Positions 1-6,661 of a stretch of DNA of 64,000 bases are shown one piece after another (the first letter of the stretch is position 1; the number at the start of each line of letters is the position of its first letter). Under the pieces are notes generated by a model. It was not told the origin of the DNA. It saw only the letters and a list, made by a program, of their open reading frames with translations, and ran no database searches. The position numbers and the translations under genes were made by a program. The stretch is from a virus (lineage: Duplodnaviria > Caudoviricetes): IMG/VR virus record IMGVR_UViG_3300034062_005626; one strand, 5' to 3'.

Positions 1-78
1 ATAATCCACAAGGTGATAAATCAATGATTAGAGTTTTAGTTAACGCTAAATTTGATAATGAATAAAAAATAAAAAAAT

Positions 79-714
79 ATGTCATCAGCAGAAGAATTAA
101 TGCAAAGATTGGCCGTGTCCAAAAAAATTATGGACAGACAGAGCACAATAAAAAGAGGTGAAATGCCACAAAATATTAATGCAGCACCAATGTTAGAGAG
201 TTTTAATACTCCTCAAGCAACATATAACTTACCTCAAGAATTTTTGTCTGAAAGCCCATCGACAAGTCAAAAATCAAATTATGACCCAACAAAACCGATT
301 GAAGAATCAAAAATTTTAAATTCAAAATTACCAGATGAAATTAAAAAATTAATGATTGAAAGACCTATAGTACAACCTAATACTATGTCAAGTGCGTCTA
401 TATCTGATGATATAATCGAGGGGGCACAAAGGTTAATGAAAATGGAGAATAAAAACTCACAACCATCCGAATCATTACCAAAATCAAACACCAAAACAAC
501 AACTCAAAACACACAATCACAATTCAACATGAATGAAATGAGAACAATGATTAGAGATGTTGTAAGAGATGTTGTAAGAGATGTTATTAGAGAAGAATTA
601 CAAGATGCGGGTGTCATTAGTGAATCATCTGAAGATGCTAACGAATCAATCCAATTTAAAGTTGGTAAGCACATATTTTTAGGTAGAGTTACAAAAATTC
701 AAAAGGTAAAATAA
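79..714 (+). CDS. hypothetical phage protein
   Basis: 211-aa ORF followed by a hairpin terminator; contains an RDVV-RDVV-RDVI-REE repeat helix. Confidence 0.8.
   Translation: MSSAEELMQRLAVSKKIMDRQSTIKRGEMPQNINAAPMLESFNTPQATYNLPQEFLSESPSTSQKSNYDPTKPIEESKILNSKLPDEIKKLMIERPIVQPNTMSSASISDDIIEGAQRLMKMENKNSQPSESLPKSNTKTTTQNTQSQFNMNEMRTMIRDVVRDVVRDVIREELQDAGVISESSEDANESIQFKVGKHIFLGRVTKIQKVK
553..592 (+). repeat. 12-bp tandem repeat (AGAGATGTTGTA x2, AGAGATGTTATT) encoding RDVV repeats
   Basis: read directly from sequence. Confidence 0.85.
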
Positions 715-737
715 CTTTAAACAAAATCAAAAAATGC

Positions 738-764
738 AATCCACCTATTTTAGGTGGATTTTTT
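738..764 (+). terminator. intrinsic terminator
   Basis: AATCCACCTA-TTT-TAGGTGGATT followed by a T run. Confidence 0.85.
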
Positions 765-792
765 ATTTTATTACCTTTTGATAGGTCGGGAC

Positions 793-799
793 TATTTAT
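793..799 (+). promoter_or_regulatory. putative phage late promoter TATTTAT (homing endonuclease)
   Basis: recurrent motif, 6 nt before ATG 806 and downstream of a terminator. Confidence 0.6.
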
Positions 800-805
800 C
801 ATATT

Positions 806-1753
806 ATGGGGAAAAAAATTCAATTAGACGAAGAAGAAGTAGTCAAACAATATCTTAATGGTAAAAGTAGTTCAATTGTTGCGACAGAATTTAAAGTCTC
901 CAAACCAAAAATACTCAGTATTTTAAAAAAACACAACGTAATAAGAAAAAAAGACAGATGTAAAAGTTTGAATTATAAATTAATCAACGAGTATTACGTT
1001 GTTGAAAGAATTTGCCCAACATGTAAGGAAATAATTCAAACTAAGTCAAAAAATAAAATTATTGCGTGTAGAAATCACTTTGTTAAAATTGACAAAAATT
1101 GTGATTGTAAAAATTGTTCATTAAAAAAACAAATAGGTAAAGGAAATCCGTTTTACGGAAAAAAACACGATGAAAAAACAAAAAATAAAATTTCAAAAAG
1201 TAGAAAGGGGAAGGCAAAAGGTTTTGAAAATGGAATGTCAAATCCTGACAATAAAAAAAGAGCTCACGATAATTTAAAACAAAAGTGGAATAATGGTGAA
1301 ATGGAACATGTTAGAAAAATGTTTTCAGAAACTATGAAAAATACTAGAAGGATGGGAAAAATAAAATCAATTAATAGGTCTAAAAAAGAGAAAGAAATAT
1401 TGGAAGAAATAAAAAATATGGGTTACCAAGTAAAACATTCATTAAAAATTGACACAAAAATATGTGACATATATATACCTAAATTAAATTTAATTATTGA
1501 ATATAATGGAGATTATTGGCATTGTAACCCAAAAAAATACGACGCAAGTTATTATCACCAAGTAAAGAAAAAAACCGCACAAGAATTATGGGAATATGAT
1601 AATAATAAAATTGACTTAATAAAAAGTAATGGTTATTTTTTTGAAGTGGTGTGGGAGTCTGAATTGAAATCAAACCCACAAATAATAAATAACTTAATAA
1701 AAAAACATGAATCAAGAGAGCAATCCAACTCCAGACGTTCGCAAAAAAATTAG
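806..1753 (+). mobile_element. free-standing homing endonuclease (HTH + Cys-rich + NUMOD3 + Vsr/DUF559-like EDxHD nuclease domain)
   Basis: N-terminal HTH-like segment; CPTC..CKNC; NUMOD3 GNPFYGKKHDEKTKNKISKSRKG; C-terminal DIYIPKLNLIIEYNGDYWH...VVWESE. Confidence 0.8.
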
Positions 1754-2967
1754 GGTTCTATGCGTCCCTAGCGACCGTACTGGAGTTGGCTGAATTTAAA
1801 GGAAAATTTAGGTCTGTAGACCCCCACGTAATGTTACAAAATAATCACTCAGATGAATTTCACGTAGATATAGATTACGACCCAAAAATTAATGATTATA
1901 ACTATTGGAAACAATATGACATTGTCCATTTCCATAGGTCAATTGGTCAAGATTTTGACCAAGCGAATAAGTTAATTCAAACATTAAATTCTATTGGTGT
2001 AATTACAATTATGGATTTGGACGACTATTGGTTGCCAACTAAAGAACACCCAATCCATCAACTAATCATACAGAATAAAATAAATGAAAAGATAGTTGCA
2101 AACCTAAAAGTGGCCGCACACGTCACAACAACAACATCTTTATTTGCATCAGAAATATCTAAAATTAATAAAAACGTATACGTTCTTCCAAACGCAATTA
2201 ATCCAAAAGAACCTCAATTCAATCATGAAACAAAACCTTCAGATAAACTTCGTTTTGGATGGTTGGGTGGTTCTTCTCACTTACATGATTTAAAATTATT
2301 AAACGGTGTAACAAATAAATTAAAAGATAGTCATGACAAATTTTCATTGTATCTATGTGGTTTCGATACAAGAGGAAGTGTTACTGAAATTAATAAAGAA
2401 ACGGGGGAACAAAAACAAAGGCCGATAAGGCCAGAAGAAACCGTATGGGCACGTTATGAAGAAATTTTTACTGACAATTATAAGTTAGTTTCTCCCCAAC
2501 ATCTTGAATACCTGAAAAAATTTGAGGATTCTGAATATATTATGGAGTCTGAACCTTTTTACAATCGAGTTTGGACAAAACCTGTTACAAGTTACGCTTC
2601 AAATTATAGATTATTTGATGTTTCATTATCACCGATTGTGAATCATATTTTTAACCGAGTTAAGTCACAATTAAAAGTTATTGAAGCAGGTTTTTATAAA
2701 AAAGCAATTATCGCTTCAAATGTTGGACCATATACCATTGATTTAAAACATGCATTAAAAAATGGTCAGTTCTCTGACGGAAACGCACTTTTAGTTGATG
2801 AAGTAAAAAATCATAGTGATTGGGCTAAAAACATGAAAAAATTAATTGATAATCCTAACTTTGCTTATGACTTGGGACAACGATTGTATGAAACGGTGAA
2901 AGACACATATGATTTGAATATGGTCACAAAAAATAGAGCGGAACTTTATAAATCTTTAATAAAATGA
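1707..2967 (+). CDS. GT-B (GT4-like) glycosyltransferase interrupted by a 13-nt insertion (1791-1803)
   Basis: ATG 1707 gives MNQESNPTPDVRKKIRVLCVPSDRTGVG then TGA 1791; the +1 frame continues (G)KFRSVDPHVMLQ... to 2967; removing 13 nt restores SDRTGVGKFRSVDP; C-terminal GT4 motif KSQLKVIEAGFYKKAIIASNVGPY. Confidence 0.8.
1725..1789 (+). other. GC-rich RNA stem-loop immediately 5' of the interruption
   Basis: CCAACTCCAG (1725-1734) is the perfect reverse complement of CTGGAGTTGG (1780-1789); extends via ACG/CGT with a 1-nt bulge; inner hairpin TAGGG (1751-55)/CCCTA (1766-70). Confidence 0.75.
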
Positions 2968-3692
2968 TAAACATACCTATTAACAAAATTTTATTTATCG
3001 ACATTGAAACTGTTGGTATATGTAAGGATTGGCGGACTTGTCAAGAAAATCACCCAAAAATTGCTGAACAATTTGTTAAATACTTTGATTGGTTTTTAAA
3101 GAGATTTCCTGAAGATGATGTTGAGACAAATGGTCTTGAAGAAGAACTTCAAAAAATGAATGATGTTTATTCTTCAAGAGCGGCACTTGTTCCGGAGTTT
3201 GCTAAAATTGTTTGCGTATCAATGGCATTTGTTTTAGAAAACGGTGAAGTAAAAAAACAAACTTTTAAAAATGACAGCGAAGAGGATTTATTGTTGGAAG
3301 TTAGAAATTTATTAGACCGTTGTCACAAATTAGATTTTTATTTGTGTGGTCATAATTTAAAAAACTTTGACATCCCTATGTTGGCAAAACGTATGATTAT
3401 TAACAATATTATGCCATCAAAAATACTCCCGTCATACGACACTAAACCGTGGGAAGTAAAAGCAATTGACACAAAAGAAATTTGGCAATACGGTTCGTAT
3501 AGTTCAATTGGTTCTTTAGATTTAATGTGTTCTTGTTTAGATATTCCAACACCAAAAGATGGTGAAATAAATGGGGGTATGGTTCATCAGGCATATTGGA
3601 ATCAGAACAGACTTGATGAAATTGCAAAATATTGCGAAAAAGACGTTGATGTTTTGATTGAATCAATAAAAAAATTAAAAAGTTTAAAATAA
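2964..3692 (+). CDS. predicted 3'-5' exonuclease (PolB-exo/DnaQ-like)
   Basis: DEDD motifs FIDIET, GHNLKNFDIP, YCEKDV. Confidence 0.85.
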   Translation: MINIPINKILFIDIETVGICKDWRTCQENHPKIAEQFVKYFDWFLKRFPEDDVETNGLEEELQKMNDVYSSRAALVPEFAKIVCVSMAFVLENGEVKKQTFKNDSEEDLLLEVRNLLDRCHKLDFYLCGHNLKNFDIPMLAKRMIINNIMPSKILPSYDTKPWEVKAIDTKEIWQYGSYSSIGSLDLMCSCLDIPTPKDGEINGGMVHQAYWNQNRLDEIAKYCEKDVDVLIESIKKLKSLK

Positions 3693-4294
3693 TGTTTGAA
3701 AATATAAAAGATTTAAAAAATAGCATGAAAGCTTTAAAAGAGCTTCAATCTCAGTTTGGTAATGTTGACATGACAAACCCTGAAAGTATGTTGAAATCCA
3801 TGGGACTTAATGTTGATGAAATCAATCAACATTTTGAAGGTCAATTTACATCAGAAGTTAATTTAAATTTTGTAAATAATAGTGAAAATCAAAATCCTGA
3901 ATACGCATATAAAGGTGATTCGGGATTTGATTTAAGAGCTTCGGAAGAAAAATGGATTTTTCCAAACTCAAGAGTTTTAATACCTACAGGTTTAAAATTT
4001 GACATTCCTGATGGTTATGAAATACAAGTAAGGTCTAAAAGTGGATTAGCCTTAAATCAAGGATTATTTGTTTTAAATTCACCTGGCACGGTTGATAGTG
4101 GATACTTAGGTGAAATACAAGTTATTTTATTTAACACAACAACAGAAAAAGTTAAAATAGAAAAGGGTCAAAAAATTGCACAAGCGGTTCTTTGTCCTGT
4201 TGTTAATGGCAAATGGGTTAATTTAACGCAAATTTCAAATTTAGGCTCAAAAGACCGAAATGATAATGGATTTGGTTCAACAGGTTTAGTATGA
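3692..4294 (+). CDS. dut: trimeric dUTPase with N-terminal extension
   Basis: motifs SGFDL, RSKSGLA, GTVDSGYLGEI, RNDNGFGSTG. Confidence 0.95.
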   Translation: MFENIKDLKNSMKALKELQSQFGNVDMTNPESMLKSMGLNVDEINQHFEGQFTSEVNLNFVNNSENQNPEYAYKGDSGFDLRASEEKWIFPNSRVLIPTGLKFDIPDGYEIQVRSKSGLALNQGLFVLNSPGTVDSGYLGEIQVILFNTTTEKVKIEKGQKIAQAVLCPVVNGKWVNLTQISNLGSKDRNDNGFGSTGLV

Positions 4295-5931
4295 TTACAG
4301 TAGGATTTTCAACAAGAAAAATAGATGACAATTTTGTCTCGATGTTAAAAAAAACATCAGGAGTAAGTAAATTGGAAATAATACCAATCGAAAACAATGG
4401 TGTATATTCTCTTAGTGAAGCTTACAATAAAATTTTAAATGACTCCACTAATGACATTGTTGTATTGATGCATGACGACATTTATTTTGACAGTAAAAAT
4501 TGGGCGTCAAAAGTTTTAAATTATTTTAAAAGAAATTCTGACTACGGCATTCTTGGAGTTGCAGGTTCAACATCATTACCTTCTTCTGGTAAATGGTGGG
4601 AAGATTTTTCAAAACTTAAAGGAATTGTTAATCATGAACATGAAGGAAAAAAATGGGAGTCAAAATATTCACCAAGCAAAGGTAATCAGTTAGATGACGT
4701 ATTGTTAGTAGATGGGTTATTTATAGCAATTAATAAAAAAAATATTAAACACAACTTTAACGAAGAAGTTAAAGGGTTTCACTTTTACGATGTAGATTTT
4801 TCTTTTAGAAATTATTTAGAAGATGTTAAAATAGGTGTTATGTATGATGTTAGAGTCACACATAAATCGATTGGTATGACTAATGAACAATGGGAAAAAA
4901 ATAGAGAGGAATTTGCAGAAAAATATAAAGATGTTTTACCCGTTAAAATAAAAAGAAATCTTACAATCGATTCACCTTTAAAGGTATTATTATCTTGTTT
5001 ATTTTTTAAAACTTTTACAGGTTCAGAAATGTATGTTTATGAATTAGCAAGAGGATTAAAAAAATTAAATTGTGATGTTACGGTACTATCAGATATTAAT
5101 GGGCCTTTATCTCAATTAGCAAAACAACAAGGAATCAAAGTTGTTTCATTTCAAGATGCTCCTGGTTACAAAATGGGAGATGGAAAGTGGGGATTTAATA
5201 CACCACAAGGGTTTCAACCGACACAACCAAATGTAATGTATAAAATTGGTGATGTTAATTATGATATTATACATACCCAACATACTCCAGTTTCAAATCA
5301 AATGTGTCAGATGTATCCAAACATCGATAAAATATCAACAATACATTCTGAAGTCATAGAATTAGAAAATCCAATTATTAACGATTCAATTAAAAAATAT
5401 ATTTGCATTCGTCCTGAGATACAAAACCATATTGTCGAAAAATTTAATATTGATAAAAATAATACTGAAGTAATTTATAATCCAATCGACACAAAAAGAT
5501 TCAATTCAAACAATATTAAAGATGATAATTATGTTTTGTTTGTTGGTACAATTGATTATTTAAGAGAAAATACAATAAGAGATTTAGTAACATACTCCTC
5601 TGAAATTAATAAAGAATTATGGTTAGTTGGTGAAAACAAATCAAATTACTTGGATGATTTATTAAAAAATCCACACGTAAAACATTTTAACTCAACAAGT
5701 AAAGTTGAACAGTATGTTAAAAACTGTTCTGAAACTGCGGGTATTCTTTTGGGAAGAACGACTATTGAAGGTTGGATGTGTAATAAATCTGGGTGGATTT
5801 ACAATGTTGAAAGTAGTGGTTATATTTTAGATAAAAAATTACATACCCCGCCGACAGATGTTAGTAAATTCGACTCAATTGAAGTGGCAAAAAAAATAAA
5901 AGAAGAATATATTAAAGTTTTAAATGATTAA
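4291..5931 (+). CDS. two-domain glycosyltransferase (GT2-like + GT4-like)
   Basis: LMHDDIYF and FHFYDVDFS in the N-half; TGSEMYVYELARGL in the GT-B C-half. Confidence 0.8.
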   Translation: MITVGFSTRKIDDNFVSMLKKTSGVSKLEIIPIENNGVYSLSEAYNKILNDSTNDIVVLMHDDIYFDSKNWASKVLNYFKRNSDYGILGVAGSTSLPSSGKWWEDFSKLKGIVNHEHEGKKWESKYSPSKGNQLDDVLLVDGLFIAINKKNIKHNFNEEVKGFHFYDVDFSFRNYLEDVKIGVMYDVRVTHKSIGMTNEQWEKNREEFAEKYKDVLPVKIKRNLTIDSPLKVLLSCLFFKTFTGSEMYVYELARGLKKLNCDVTVLSDINGPLSQLAKQQGIKVVSFQDAPGYKMGDGKWGFNTPQGFQPTQPNVMYKIGDVNYDIIHTQHTPVSNQMCQMYPNIDKISTIHSEVIELENPIINDSIKKYICIRPEIQNHIVEKFNIDKNNTEVIYNPIDTKRFNSNNIKDDNYVLFVGTIDYLRENTIRDLVTYSSEINKELWLVGENKSNYLDDLLKNPHVKHFNSTSKVEQYVKNCSETAGILLGRTTIEGWMCNKSGWIYNVESSGYILDKKLHTPPTDVSKFDSIEVAKKIKEEYIKVLND

Positions 5932-6661
5932 AGTTGTAAGTTGTTTTTGGAATGTTGAAAACTACATTGAAAAATGTATTAATTCGGTTAAATCTCAAAC
6001 TTATCGGGACTTTAAAATGTATTTAATTGATGATATGTCTAATGACAATACAAATCAAATCATAGAAAAATTAATAGAGGGTGATGAAAGATTTGTTCAT
6101 ATCAAAAACACTGAAAAAAAGTTCAAATTAAAAAATTTAGATGACTTATTGATGGATGAATCATTAATTGATGATGAAGATATTATTGTTGAGTTGGATG
6201 GTGATGATTGGTTTTATAATGAATTAGTTTTACAAAAAGTTTTTGATAGATATTCTAAAAACAAAAATCTTTGGATTACTAACGGTAGTTTTATATATTC
6301 TGATGGAAGAATGGGGTTTTCGGCAAAGGTGAATCCTAACACAATAAGACGTGACTTATTTGTTTTTTCCCATTTAAGAACTTGGAAAGCCCATTTATGG
6401 AGAAGCATAGATGAAGAAATGTTTTTAGATGAAAATAAAAATTATTTTAAATCAGGTGCCGACGTTGCGTACTCATTTCCTATGGTTGAAATGTCAGGTG
6501 AAAGTCATTATGAATTTATACCCGACATACTATTAGTTTATAATGAAGAAAACCCATATAATGACCACAAACAAGGTAGTGCTAGTGGTTCTAATCTTGA
6601 ACAGATAAAAGTATCAAACATGGTTAGAAATAAACAAAAATTAAATAAGTTAGTTAAATGA
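5924..6661 (+). CDS. GT2 family glycosyltransferase
   Basis: CINSVKSQTY, LIDDMSNDNT, ELDGDDW. Confidence 0.85.
   Translation: MIKVVSCFWNVENYIEKCINSVKSQTYRDFKMYLIDDMSNDNTNQIIEKLIEGDERFVHIKNTEKKFKLKNLDDLLMDESLIDDEDIIVELDGDDWFYNELVLQKVFDRYSKNKNLWITNGSFIYSDGRMGFSAKVNPNTIRRDLFVFSHLRTWKAHLWRSIDEEMFLDENKNYFKSGADVAYSFPMVEMSGESHYEFIPDILLVYNEENPYNDHKQGSASGSNLEQIKVSNMVRNKQKLNKLVK

Follow-up and report, generated by a model that had tools for sequence, protein, structure and literature searches.

A mobile homing-endonuclease cassette in a phage glycosyltransferase gene and a probable glycine-to-glycine ribosomal hop across its insert

To our knowledge, gene 60 of T4 is essentially the only bacterial or phage case of efficient programmed bypassing that has been studied well, and the relatives of that bypass of which we are aware all belong to homologous MobA elements located in a single gene. 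Bonocora et al. reportedly described the gene 60 bypass together with its MobA homing-endonuclease element in 2011, and the synthetic stop-hops made in E. coli by Weiss et al. in 1987 are said to have reached only about 1%. In gene 60 homologs the take-off and landing codons always form wobble-compatible pairs (Manning and Atkins, bioRxiv 10.1101/2022.08.31.505936). In the synthetic constructs (Weiss et al. [quoted passage not shown] Here we describe a glycosyltransferase (GT) gene in a Caudoviricetes record (IMG/VR IMGVR_UViG_3300034062_005626; the 64,000-nt stretch analyzed is called the window) that is interrupted by a homing-endonuclease cassette, and we argue from sequence comparison that ribosomes probably hop from one Gly codon to another over the insert.

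Reading frames and alleles at the junction

The GT gene begins in two frames on the plus strand of the window. A 28-codon frame from ATG 1707 ends with ACT GGA GTT GGC, the last codon at 1788-1790, and is followed at once by TGA (1791-1793). A 393-codon frame in the +1 phase runs from TTG 1786, includes GGA (1801-1803) and continues with AAA TTT AGG TCT from 1804. This layout is as an earlier note on the DNA had described it, with the body resuming in the +1 frame after GGA. Among intact homologs the nearest is P0001 (404 aa), which matches the 393-aa ORF of the window at 100% identity over 99% of its length and has ...SDRTGVG KFRSVDPH... without an insert. DNA encoding the intact form (L001) runs GGA GTT GGA AAA TTT AGG at the junction, so the window carries exactly 13 surplus bases there. 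The uninterrupted GGN-AAA-TTT-AGG that had been expected of homologous genes is thus present in L001, and removing the 13 nt from the window does restore the GT motif, yielding the TGVG-KFRS junction of intact homologs. The proposed take-off codon is GGC (1788-1790) and the proposed landing codon GGA (1801-1803), the first codon in common with the parental allele. The 10-nt coding gap between them (1791-1800) starts with TGA, contains no GG and is proposed to go undecoded.

The GT body (1804-2967) resumes at AAA, which encodes Lys18 in the intact protein. It matches the glycosyltransferase family phrog_7162 at 2e-45, whereas Pfam Glyco_trans_1_4 scores 18.3 bits, under its cut-off, so that the enzyme is a candidate member of the GT-B type. 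The gene's own stop is TGA (2965-2967), so TGA serves as a normal stop there. No tRNA genes were found within the window, and no suppressor tRNA is among the 19 tRNAs of one complete relative. Sequence search returned no GT homolog of solved structure. An AF2 model of intact P0001, of low overall confidence (mean pLDDT 57.8) and used for N-terminal secondary structure only, assigns beta1 to residues 4-9 and helix 1 to residues 18-31. The TGVGKFRS loop is invariant among the GT sequences compared. ORF and gene callers gave GT products of 393 and 378 aa.

At this one junction, 51 haplotypes from related uncultured phages present 16 distinct take-off/gap/landing strings, with inserts of 6, 9, 11, 12, 13, 14 or 15 nt and all three frame relations. 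All 16 strings share the form GGY, TAA or TGA, 0-9 nt without GG, GGN, and AAR TTY. Take-off is at GGT (35 haplotypes) or GGC (16) and never at GGA or GGG, whereas intact alleles use all four codons. A stop follows directly in every haplotype (TAA 34, TGA 17, TAG 0). The landing codon is GGT in 34, GGC in 6 and GGA in 11, with AAR TTY next every time. Gap length ranges among alleles from 3 to 12 nt, has changed at least five times on the endonuclease tree, and none of the 16 gap sequences contains a GG dinucleotide that could offer a premature landing triplet. Pattern matches in L038, L057 and L062 (2 nt) and in L047 and L052 (8 nt, GC-rich) were left out as chance occurrences in unrelated sequence. 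In a single contig, L083, the insert is 5 nt long and would make AGC the landing triplet.

Take-off and landing are a wobble-compatible GGY pair in 40 of the 51 haplotypes and match in the first two bases only in 11, the GGC-GGA pair of the window among them. The third-base mismatch had been flagged as a weakness, and the pairs of gene 60 homologs are always compatible: the difference in the window lies outside the wobble of tRNA-Gly(GCC) and counts against a hop. P-site re-pairing by two of three bases has been reported to be sufficient.

Purifying selection acts on both sides of the junction. From the landing codon, the downstream frame extends 377-402 codons in all complete insertion alleles (387 in intact alleles), and median pairwise dN/dS is 0.15 over the 44 distinct complete insertion sequences; the body in the window gives 0.03-0.2 against other insertion alleles. 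The codons for KFRSVDPH vary synonymously, with both codon families in use for Arg (AGR, CGN) and for Ser (TCN, AGY). On the upstream side, the stop is preceded by 26-29 codons in every insertion haplotype, compared with 17-18 codons before the junction in intact alleles, including those that carry the endonuclease. At the level of sequence, these comparisons establish an allelic series with coding constraint on both flanks.

A mobile cassette with a homing endonuclease gene

The insert is one end of a larger unit. A cassette at 768-1800 stands in place of 146 nt (L001 3903-4048) of the endonuclease-free allele and contains an endonuclease gene, an N-terminal extension, replacement GT codons 2-17, a stop and a spacer. 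Its borders are sharp: window 1-767 is 97.3% identical to L001 3136-3902 and window 1801-5924 is 97.6% identical to L001, while the interior is alignable solely in the 48 nt preceding the junction, at about 71%. The right border coincides exactly with the landing codon, and a matching mosaic is seen in three further allele pairs. On the left, a terminator-like hairpin of the upstream 211-aa gene (738-765; 10-bp stem, T tail) marks the limit of the sequence common with endonuclease-free relatives.

The gene at 806-1753 encodes 315 aa with a NUMOD3 domain (PF07460, 26.4 bits, above cut-off), a C-terminal restriction-endonuclease-like REase_MTES_1575 domain (PF18741, 21.3 bits, below cut-off) and similarity to homing endonucleases of phrog_3339 (1e-12). 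Homologs adjoin nearly all insertion alleles on the upstream side, and the gene is absent from L001, L002 and L109. These domains, the sporadic presence and the co-conversion of flanking sequence identify it as a predicted free-standing homing endonuclease gene. The earlier note described the insert correctly and overlooked both this upstream gene and the mobile nature of the cassette. Endonuclease paralogs that would mark further cassettes were sought in five related phage records, where only the copy adjoining the GT gene was found. Searches with window 1-6000 against a phage nucleotide collection gave no match, and Rfam on 600-3200 gave no RNA family, with two matches at E about 0.9.

The last 47 nt of the endonuclease gene overlap the 5′ frame of the GT gene, out of frame. 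That frame opens with an N-terminal extension, ATG plus 11 codons in the window (1707-1742). Such an extension, of about 9-12 residues, is found in every insertion allele and is absent from all intact ones; it does not resemble the peptide of gene 60. Next comes a replacement for the first GT beta-strand and Gly loop (1743-1790; KKIRVLCVPSDRTGVG), borne by the cassette and diverged from the parental sequence: it is about 71% identical to L001 at the nucleotide level, compared with 98.5% over the 600 nt past the junction. In alleles of the L003 and L004 types, the endonuclease has decayed through deletions, frameshifts and stops to a remnant of about 80% identity plus indels, and the extension, replacement copy and gap are intact, 94 of 97 nt being identical. 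Carriage of the endonuclease does not require the insert, since endonuclease-bearing alleles that lack one also exist (L007-9, L110-111, L178). The cassette borders and the linkage to the endonuclease are thus evident from these alignments.

A proposed hop and its alternatives

The explanation that we consider probable is that a homing-endonuclease cassette has entered the GT gene and that ribosomes hop from Gly codon to Gly codon over its insert. The cassette would have landed just 5′ of, and within the first codons of, the phage gene, supplying the gene for the endonuclease (806-1753), a new start followed by 11 extra codons (1707-1742), its own version of the first 16 GT codons (1743-1790), and a stop plus 7 nt (1791-1800). 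A ribosome starting at ATG 1707 would come to hold GGC 1788-1790 in the P site and UGA in the A site. If termination is slow, the peptidyl-tRNA-Gly may unpair, the mRNA may slide by 13 nt, and the tRNA may re-pair at GGA 1801-1803, with decoding restarting at AAA 1804. The product would carry exactly the ancestral TGVG-KFRS junction. The N-terminal extension may lengthen or anchor the nascent chain and hold the peptidyl-tRNA during the hop. By analogy with T4 mobA/gene 60, the role of the insert would be to break conserved DNA that the endonuclease recognizes; following the MobA precedent, the enzyme would cut an element-free allele near the insertion point and spare its own. With the recognized DNA broken in this way, the carrier genome would avoid self-cleavage and its protein would be unaltered. 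Hopping of peptidyl-tRNA-Gly is favored over frameshifting, readthrough or a split gene because of the frames kept, the absent starts, a gap with two stops and single-nucleotide gap indels. The short Gly-to-Gly bypass over a stop put forward in the earlier note is accordingly the best-supported reading of the alleles, with 16 strings, seven lengths, selection on the flanks and missing starts in its favor.

Stimulatory signals of the kind known elsewhere were sought around the junction. No take-off hairpin common to all was found in 50 haplotypes, most of which have folding z-scores near 0; strong folding (z -2 to -5) is limited to four alleles (L053, L074, L076, L077), and small hairpins (UUGG UUAA CCAA) are confined to 9-12-nt alleles. 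Nor is there a conserved Shine-Dalgarno element at the junction among insertion alleles. GGAG at 1782-1785 had been likened to the prfB stimulator, an idea that the sequences do not support: it is part of the Gly-Val codons GGA GTT, is present in intact alleles as well, and varies in sequence among insertion alleles, where GGGG, GGCG and GGTG also occur. SD-like 4-mers precede none (0) of the 36 ORFs on the plus strand of the window and 2 of the 26 on its minus strand, against a background of 7%. The lack of a conserved hairpin or Shine-Dalgarno element, the insert-free endonuclease alleles and the AGC of L083 all count against a hop, as does the low efficiency of about 1% that synthetic stop-hops are said to have reached.

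Allele-specific conventional recoding is an unlikely alternative. The window would then use a +1 frameshift at GGC-UGA to give GVG-EFKG-KFR; a -1 (or +2) shift would serve in alleles of 11 and 14 nt, and stop readthrough in those of 6, 9, 12 and 15 nt, with each product gaining 2-5 residues in the Gly loop. The +1 frame is open across the gap in the window (GAA TTT AAA GGA), and a stop codon in the A site stimulates +1 shifts as well, as in prfB. In all alleles but L040, another single-event path, whether readthrough or a +1 or -1 frameshift, is open, and this too counts against the hop. That one allele, with a 15-nt displacement, has two in-frame stops; its cassette flank resembles that of the window (82% over 239 nt, N-terminal peptide near-identical). 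Conventional recoding would also need three mechanisms to evolve repeatedly among close relatives. Displacements of 11 and 12 nt, which differ by a 1-nt gap indel, occur in cassettes that are 88-93% identical over 950 nt and which fall in one clade on the endonuclease tree (support 100/99). The invariant second GGN codon would be left without a reason, tRNA-Gly(GCC) would re-pair poorly on GCU, the phage shows no Shine-Dalgarno use, and the added residues would land in the invariant TGVGKFRS loop.

It is similarly improbable that the cassette simply inactivates a dispensable GT and that the intact-looking frames reflect recent homing into, and recombination with, functional alleles. Homing elements can spread even at a cost, and the histories of cassette and backbone differ, so the backbone dN/dS partly measures time spent as an intact allele. 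On the other hand, none of the 44 distinct complete insertion alleles carries a second lesion, and the GT frame, the extension and the gap outlast decay of the neighboring endonuclease gene. Inactivation also leaves unexplained the invariant GGY-stop...GGN design and the extension linked to the insert.

A split enzyme, which we regard as quite improbable, would release a 28-aa peptide (beta1 plus Gly loop) at TGA and start the body at TTG 1786 or ATG 1831, with the pieces associating or the body acting alone. Phage genes split by endonucleases are known (gene 39/60), the 393-aa and 378-aa products of the gene callers would fit, and the overlap of the in-frame TTG 1786 with the stop region (TTGGCTGA) would permit coupling. 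However, the TTG (1786-1788) that ORF finders picked is a by-product of GTT GGC, in the right frame in 13-nt alleles only, its spacing from GGAG is zero in a phage without Shine-Dalgarno use, and it is probably not a genuine start. Most other alleles have no in-frame start near the junction: outside the 13-nt alleles, the first in-frame ATG, GTG or TTG lies 12 to 639 nt past the landing codon, and more than 20 loci have none for 84-639 nt. KFRSVDPH, just past landing, is nonetheless conserved as protein. An assembly or sequencing artefact, for which the sole argument is that a frameshift seen in one contig is frequently an error, has a negligible probability and is refuted by the recurrence of the identical 13 nt in at least 10 assemblies made independently with different pipelines (JGI, ENA, Logan, IMG/VR) within a structured allelic series.

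Significance and comparison with known systems

A literature search, which reached few subscription journals, returned no prior description of the GT cassette. If confirmed, the hop would represent an independent origin of one evolutionary solution, in which an endonuclease shields its own genome through untranslated bases in its target, and the alleles would provide reporter assays with a naturally graded set of gap lengths (3-12 nt) and with different stops and landing codons. We suggest more tentatively that homing endonuclease and bypass have here been joined in one cassette for a second time, by independent evolution, and that the bypass module is minimal and portable, in which an element-encoded N-terminal peptide and a GGY-stop may give efficient hops of 6-15 nt without mRNA structure or Shine-Dalgarno pairing, in what is probably a Bacteroidota-type, Shine-Dalgarno-independent translation system. 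Were this to be true, these would be the first natural stop-hops, with an allelic series for the rules of take-off, gap length and landing. A confirmed hop would also be a warning for annotation, as gene callers shortened the GT in dozens of metagenomic contigs, to 393 or 378 aa.

Among described systems, the prfB (RF2) +1 frameshift shares with the GT junction an A-site stop and a G-rich stretch just 5′. It differs in being an overlapping-codon shift that needs Shine-Dalgarno/anti-Shine-Dalgarno pairing, whereas the frame relation in the GT gene varies by allele in a phage without SD use. The 'byp' elements of Magnusiomyces capitatus mitochondria (Lang 2014, Nosek 2015 via PMC5009743) are also mobile inserts in coding sequence that are neutralized by bypassing, with imperfect take-off/landing matches tolerated. 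They are 27-55 nt long, mitochondrial, use an unassigned A-site codon, number dozens per genome and have no endonuclease link. The layout of the synthetic stop-hops is that of the 6-nt GT alleles (GGT TAA GGT); those constructs are engineered and inefficient, whereas the GT layout is natural, conserved and diversified. [quoted passage not shown] The earlier note had expected a new, much shorter bypass. The hop itself is supported, and short bypasses already have precedents in the synthetic stop-hops and the 10-nt case of Hau3 (PMC5009743, PMC10732093).

The closest parallel, judged by analogy, is T4 mobA/gene 60, given the homing endonuclease directly upstream of the GT frame and the mobile insert. 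In both systems a single mobile unit comprises an endonuclease gene and, overlapping it out of frame, an N-terminal extension, together with a diverged version of the replaced host codons and a bypass insert (bioRxiv 10.1101/2022.08.31.505936). Both have a Gly take-off, an immediate stop and a Gly landing codon at which the element ends, and in both the bypass outlasts endonuclease decay and near relatives lack the element. The differences are also numerous. Gene 60 has a displacement of 50 nt, compared with 6-15 nt in the GT cassette, and its conserved take-off stem-loop and internal Shine-Dalgarno are missing here. Its take-off codon is GGA rather than GGY, and some GT pairs are wobble-incompatible. 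MobA is an HNH enzyme in a topoisomerase II large-subunit gene, whereas the GT cassette combines NUMOD3 with a restriction-endonuclease-like domain, and its endonuclease gene lies upstream, leaving the target gene not split in two. The two elements have no sequence homology, and on sequence grounds the GT cassette is analogous to MobA/gene 60 in architecture rather than a member of that family.

Interruption of the glycosyltransferase gene

The glycosyltransferase (GT) gene lies in phage DNA of 30.9% GC, with genes for a major head protein, a portal, and a large terminase. The terminase shares 26-28% identity with its counterparts in Flavobacterium phage immuto, in cyanophages, and in huge phages. 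Among related contigs, lengths of up to 308 kb with terminal repeats occur. The GT gene belongs to a cluster that also includes further glycosyltransferases, along with a dUTPase and an exonuclease, and this neighborhood is mosaic: in one relative, an additional 277-aa ORF separates the dUTPase from the GT gene that comes next (L004:6530-7363), and in another, an NAD-dependent epimerase/dehydratase gene follows the GT where the exonuclease gene would otherwise be (L011:3959-5179). The GT body matches the phrog_7162 phage glycosyltransferase family (2e-45) and, weakly, Pfam GT1, and a protein search returned thousands of relatives. In one of these (P0040, 443 aa, NCBI source), a stretch of ~39 residues surrounding the NHIFNRVKSQLKVIEAGF motif is tandemly duplicated within the protein; the duplication is either real or an assembly artifact.

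The claim of the earlier note that a stop-containing 13-nt insertion splits this gene was confirmed. On the plus strand, a 28-codon frame from ATG 1707 ends in ACT GGA GTT GGC (GGC at 1788-90) and runs directly into TGA (1791-93). A 393-codon frame in the +1 phase, for which ORF finders choose TTG 1786 as the start, includes GGA (1801-03) and then AAA TTT AGG TCT GTA GAC. The closest homolog, P0001 (404 aa), matches 99% of the 393-aa window ORF at 100% identity and is uninterrupted at the junction (SDRTGVG KFRSVDPH), as the note had anticipated for homologs. Its DNA, locus L001, reads GGA GTT GGA AAA TTT AGG; relative to it the window carries exactly 13 additional bases, whose removal restores the ancestral protein. 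The interrupted allele also accounts for database entries of 393 aa (first residues LAEFKG) and 378 aa (first residues MLQNN), which gene callers truncated. An assembly artifact is excluded because the identical insert recurs in at least 10 independent assemblies.

The allelic series and its proposed explanation

We searched metagenomes of IMG/VR and JGI for any insert of 1-30 nt between the GTN-GG and AAR-TTY of the junction motif and added a protein-seeded sample of 80 loci, which together yielded 51 distinct haplotypes with an insertion and 38 intact ones. The 16 insertion strings fall into seven length classes. Five are of 6 nt (GGC TGA GGT; GGT TAA followed by GGA, GGC, or GGT; GGT TGA GGA), two of 9 nt (GGC TGA GTA GGT; GGT TAA CCA GGC), three of 11 nt, one of 12 nt, two of 13 nt (that of the window and, in L112, a version differing by one base), one of 14 nt, and two of 15 nt. 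All 16 share one design, namely a GGY codon as proposed take-off, an immediate TAA or TGA, 0-9 bases without GG, a GGN codon as proposed landing, and AAR TTY, while the relation of upstream to downstream frame is 0, +1, or -1 depending on the allele. The stop is TAA in 34 haplotypes, TGA in 17, and TAG in none; take-off GGC is always paired with TGA, and GGT is paired with TAA in all haplotypes except one. One 9-nt allele (L034:268-279, oriented) reads GTG GGC TGA GTA GGT, and this duplication of Val-Gly on either side of the stop suggests that the insert may have originated by tandem duplication of the target, possibly allowing a two-codon match at landing. An insert of 5 nt, GGC TGA GC before AAA, occurs in a single contig (L083:3284-3300, oriented) and would make AGC the landing triplet. 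The endonuclease gene upstream of it carries a frameshift, and the case represents either a copy in decay, an error, or a landing that matches at two of three positions.

Judged by sequence constraint, the flanks on either side of the insert are coding. The upstream frame of insertion alleles always starts with ATG, spans 26-29 residues, and ends in a conserved strand and Gly loop. From the landing site, a frame of 377-402 codons is kept in all complete insertion loci (387 in intact alleles), and the KFRSVDPH codons right after landing show synonymous variation that extends to exchanges between codon families for Arg and for Ser. Median pairwise dN/dS is 0.15 among 44 distinct complete insertion sequences and 0.03-0.05 within the 13-nt group, where synonymous divergence reaches 0.33.

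The allelic series, these coding flanks, and the evidence against its rivals make the Gly-to-Gly bypass over the stop proposed earlier the best-supported reading and a probable one, now set within a homing-endonuclease cassette. The window pair GGC to GGA is not wobble-compatible for tRNA-Gly(GCC), and the same is true of 11 of the 51 haplotypes. The complete relative G004 (308,574 bp, terminal repeats; L105:167-10404, L106:2226-2316), which carries an 11-nt allele, encodes 19 tRNAs, including tRNA-Gly(UCC), tRNA-Lys(UUU), and tRNA-Val(UAC).

Three points count against readthrough or frameshifting by a mechanism that differs between alleles. Such recoding would have to pass two in-frame stops (G*KN*GKF) in L040, a 15-nt displacement whose cassette flank is 82% identical to the window over 239 nt with a near-identical N-terminal peptide. 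It would also have to change repeatedly, as displacements of 11 or 12 nt occur in cassettes 88-93% identical over 950 nt, which form one endonuclease clade (support 100/99) sister to the 6-nt alleles, and the endonuclease tree holds at least five changes of gap length. Finally, it leaves the invariant second Gly codon without a reason. TGA is also the ordinary stop of the window GT itself (2965-67), and no suppressor tRNA was found among the 19 tRNAs of G004. A split enzyme, with the downstream body initiated independently, draws on the in-frame TTG 1786 of the window, but this TTG arises incidentally from GTT GGC, and only in 13-nt alleles does it lie in frame. In more than 20 loci the first ATG, GTG, or TTG of the downstream frame lies 84-639 nt past landing, so independent initiation cannot explain the conserved intervening codons. 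Inactivation of the GT to a pseudogene is countered by the lack of secondary lesions in all 44 insertion alleles and by the L003 type, in which the endonuclease remnant is decayed (~80% identical, with an indel and stops) yet the extension, replacement copy, and gap are kept (94 of 97 nt identical).

The homing-endonuclease cassette and candidate RNA signals

The ORF at 806-1753 is a homing endonuclease, with NUMOD3 above the cut-off, a phrog_3339 match, and a restriction-endonuclease-like C-terminal domain scoring below the cut-off. Homologs 44-67% identical, some full length and others truncated or vestigial, lie directly upstream of nearly all insertion alleles. Identity to L001, which lacks the endonuclease, is 97.3% over window 1-767 and 97.6% over 1801-5924, and window 768-1800 takes the place of 146 nt of L001. 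The left border of this cassette comes after the terminator-like hairpin of the upstream gene (738-765), and its right border is exactly the landing codon. Inside it, a diverged copy supplies the first GT codons, with 71% identity to L001 versus 98.5% in the following 600 nt; the same mosaic occurs in the pairs L048/L110, L070/L167, and L171/L118. An 11-codon N-terminal extension overlaps the 3′ end of the endonuclease gene out of frame and is present in all insertion alleles and no intact allele. Both the endonuclease target and an immunity role of the insert are putative.

Even the intact alleles with a 285-aa endonuclease homolog directly upstream (L007-L009, L110, L111, L178) lack insert and extension; these may have lost the insert or may have gained immunity by substitution instead. 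In L178 the loop Val is replaced by Cys (GGC TGT GGA), and L007 and L110 nest, with weak support, among insert-bearing cassettes on the endonuclease tree. The homolog in G004 (L189, G004:C1:238549-239460) has an internal TAA and may be inactive; the 11-nt gap and GT frame there are still intact.

A prfB-like Shine-Dalgarno stimulator, which the earlier note saw in GGAG, was not supported: GGAG is part of the GGA GTT codons, and other insertion alleles have GGGG, GGCG, or GGTG. Among the 36 plus-strand window ORFs with 120 aa or more, none is preceded by an SD-like 4-mer (background 7%). The sequence ahead of these ORFs is rich in A, which occupies -3 in 72%, and A-rich upstream regions without Shine-Dalgarno motifs are typical of Bacteroidota hosts. 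No mRNA hairpin common to all alleles was found. There is complementarity between the Thr-Gly-Val-Gly codons (N GGN GTN GGN; window 1781-1790) and those for Val-Asp-Pro-His (GTN GAC CCN C; 1816-1825), with pairing at 8.1 of 10 positions in insertion alleles versus 6.5 in intact ones. The first Gly codon is GGG in 29/51 insertion versus 1/38 intact haplotypes, the Pro codon is CCC in 36/51 versus 3/38, and 14-bp hairpins occur in four alleles (z between -2 and -5). This pairing could act as a signal in the RNA, could serve recognition of the DNA by the endonuclease, or could stem from shared descent. The junctions of the 9-12-nt alleles (L015, L024, L033, L065) have the palindrome TTGG TTAA CCAA, including GTTAAC. 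In RNA it would fold into a hairpin of 4 bp whose stem contains the take-off GG and whose loop contains the stop, resembling in miniature the take-off stem-loop of gene 60.

Comparison with known bypass systems

No description of this GT element was found in the literature searched. [quoted passage not shown] The GT cassette has the same architecture but is non-homologous; endonuclease family and host gene both differ, and its gaps measure 3-12 nt rather than ~47 nt. The 6-nt GT alleles have the layout of synthetic stop-hops, of which no natural example was known according to a 2016 review (PMC5009743). Short gaps as such are already precedented, since there is support for a bypass of 10 nt from a Gly take-off codon in the terminase of Streptomyces phage Hau3 (PMC10732093).
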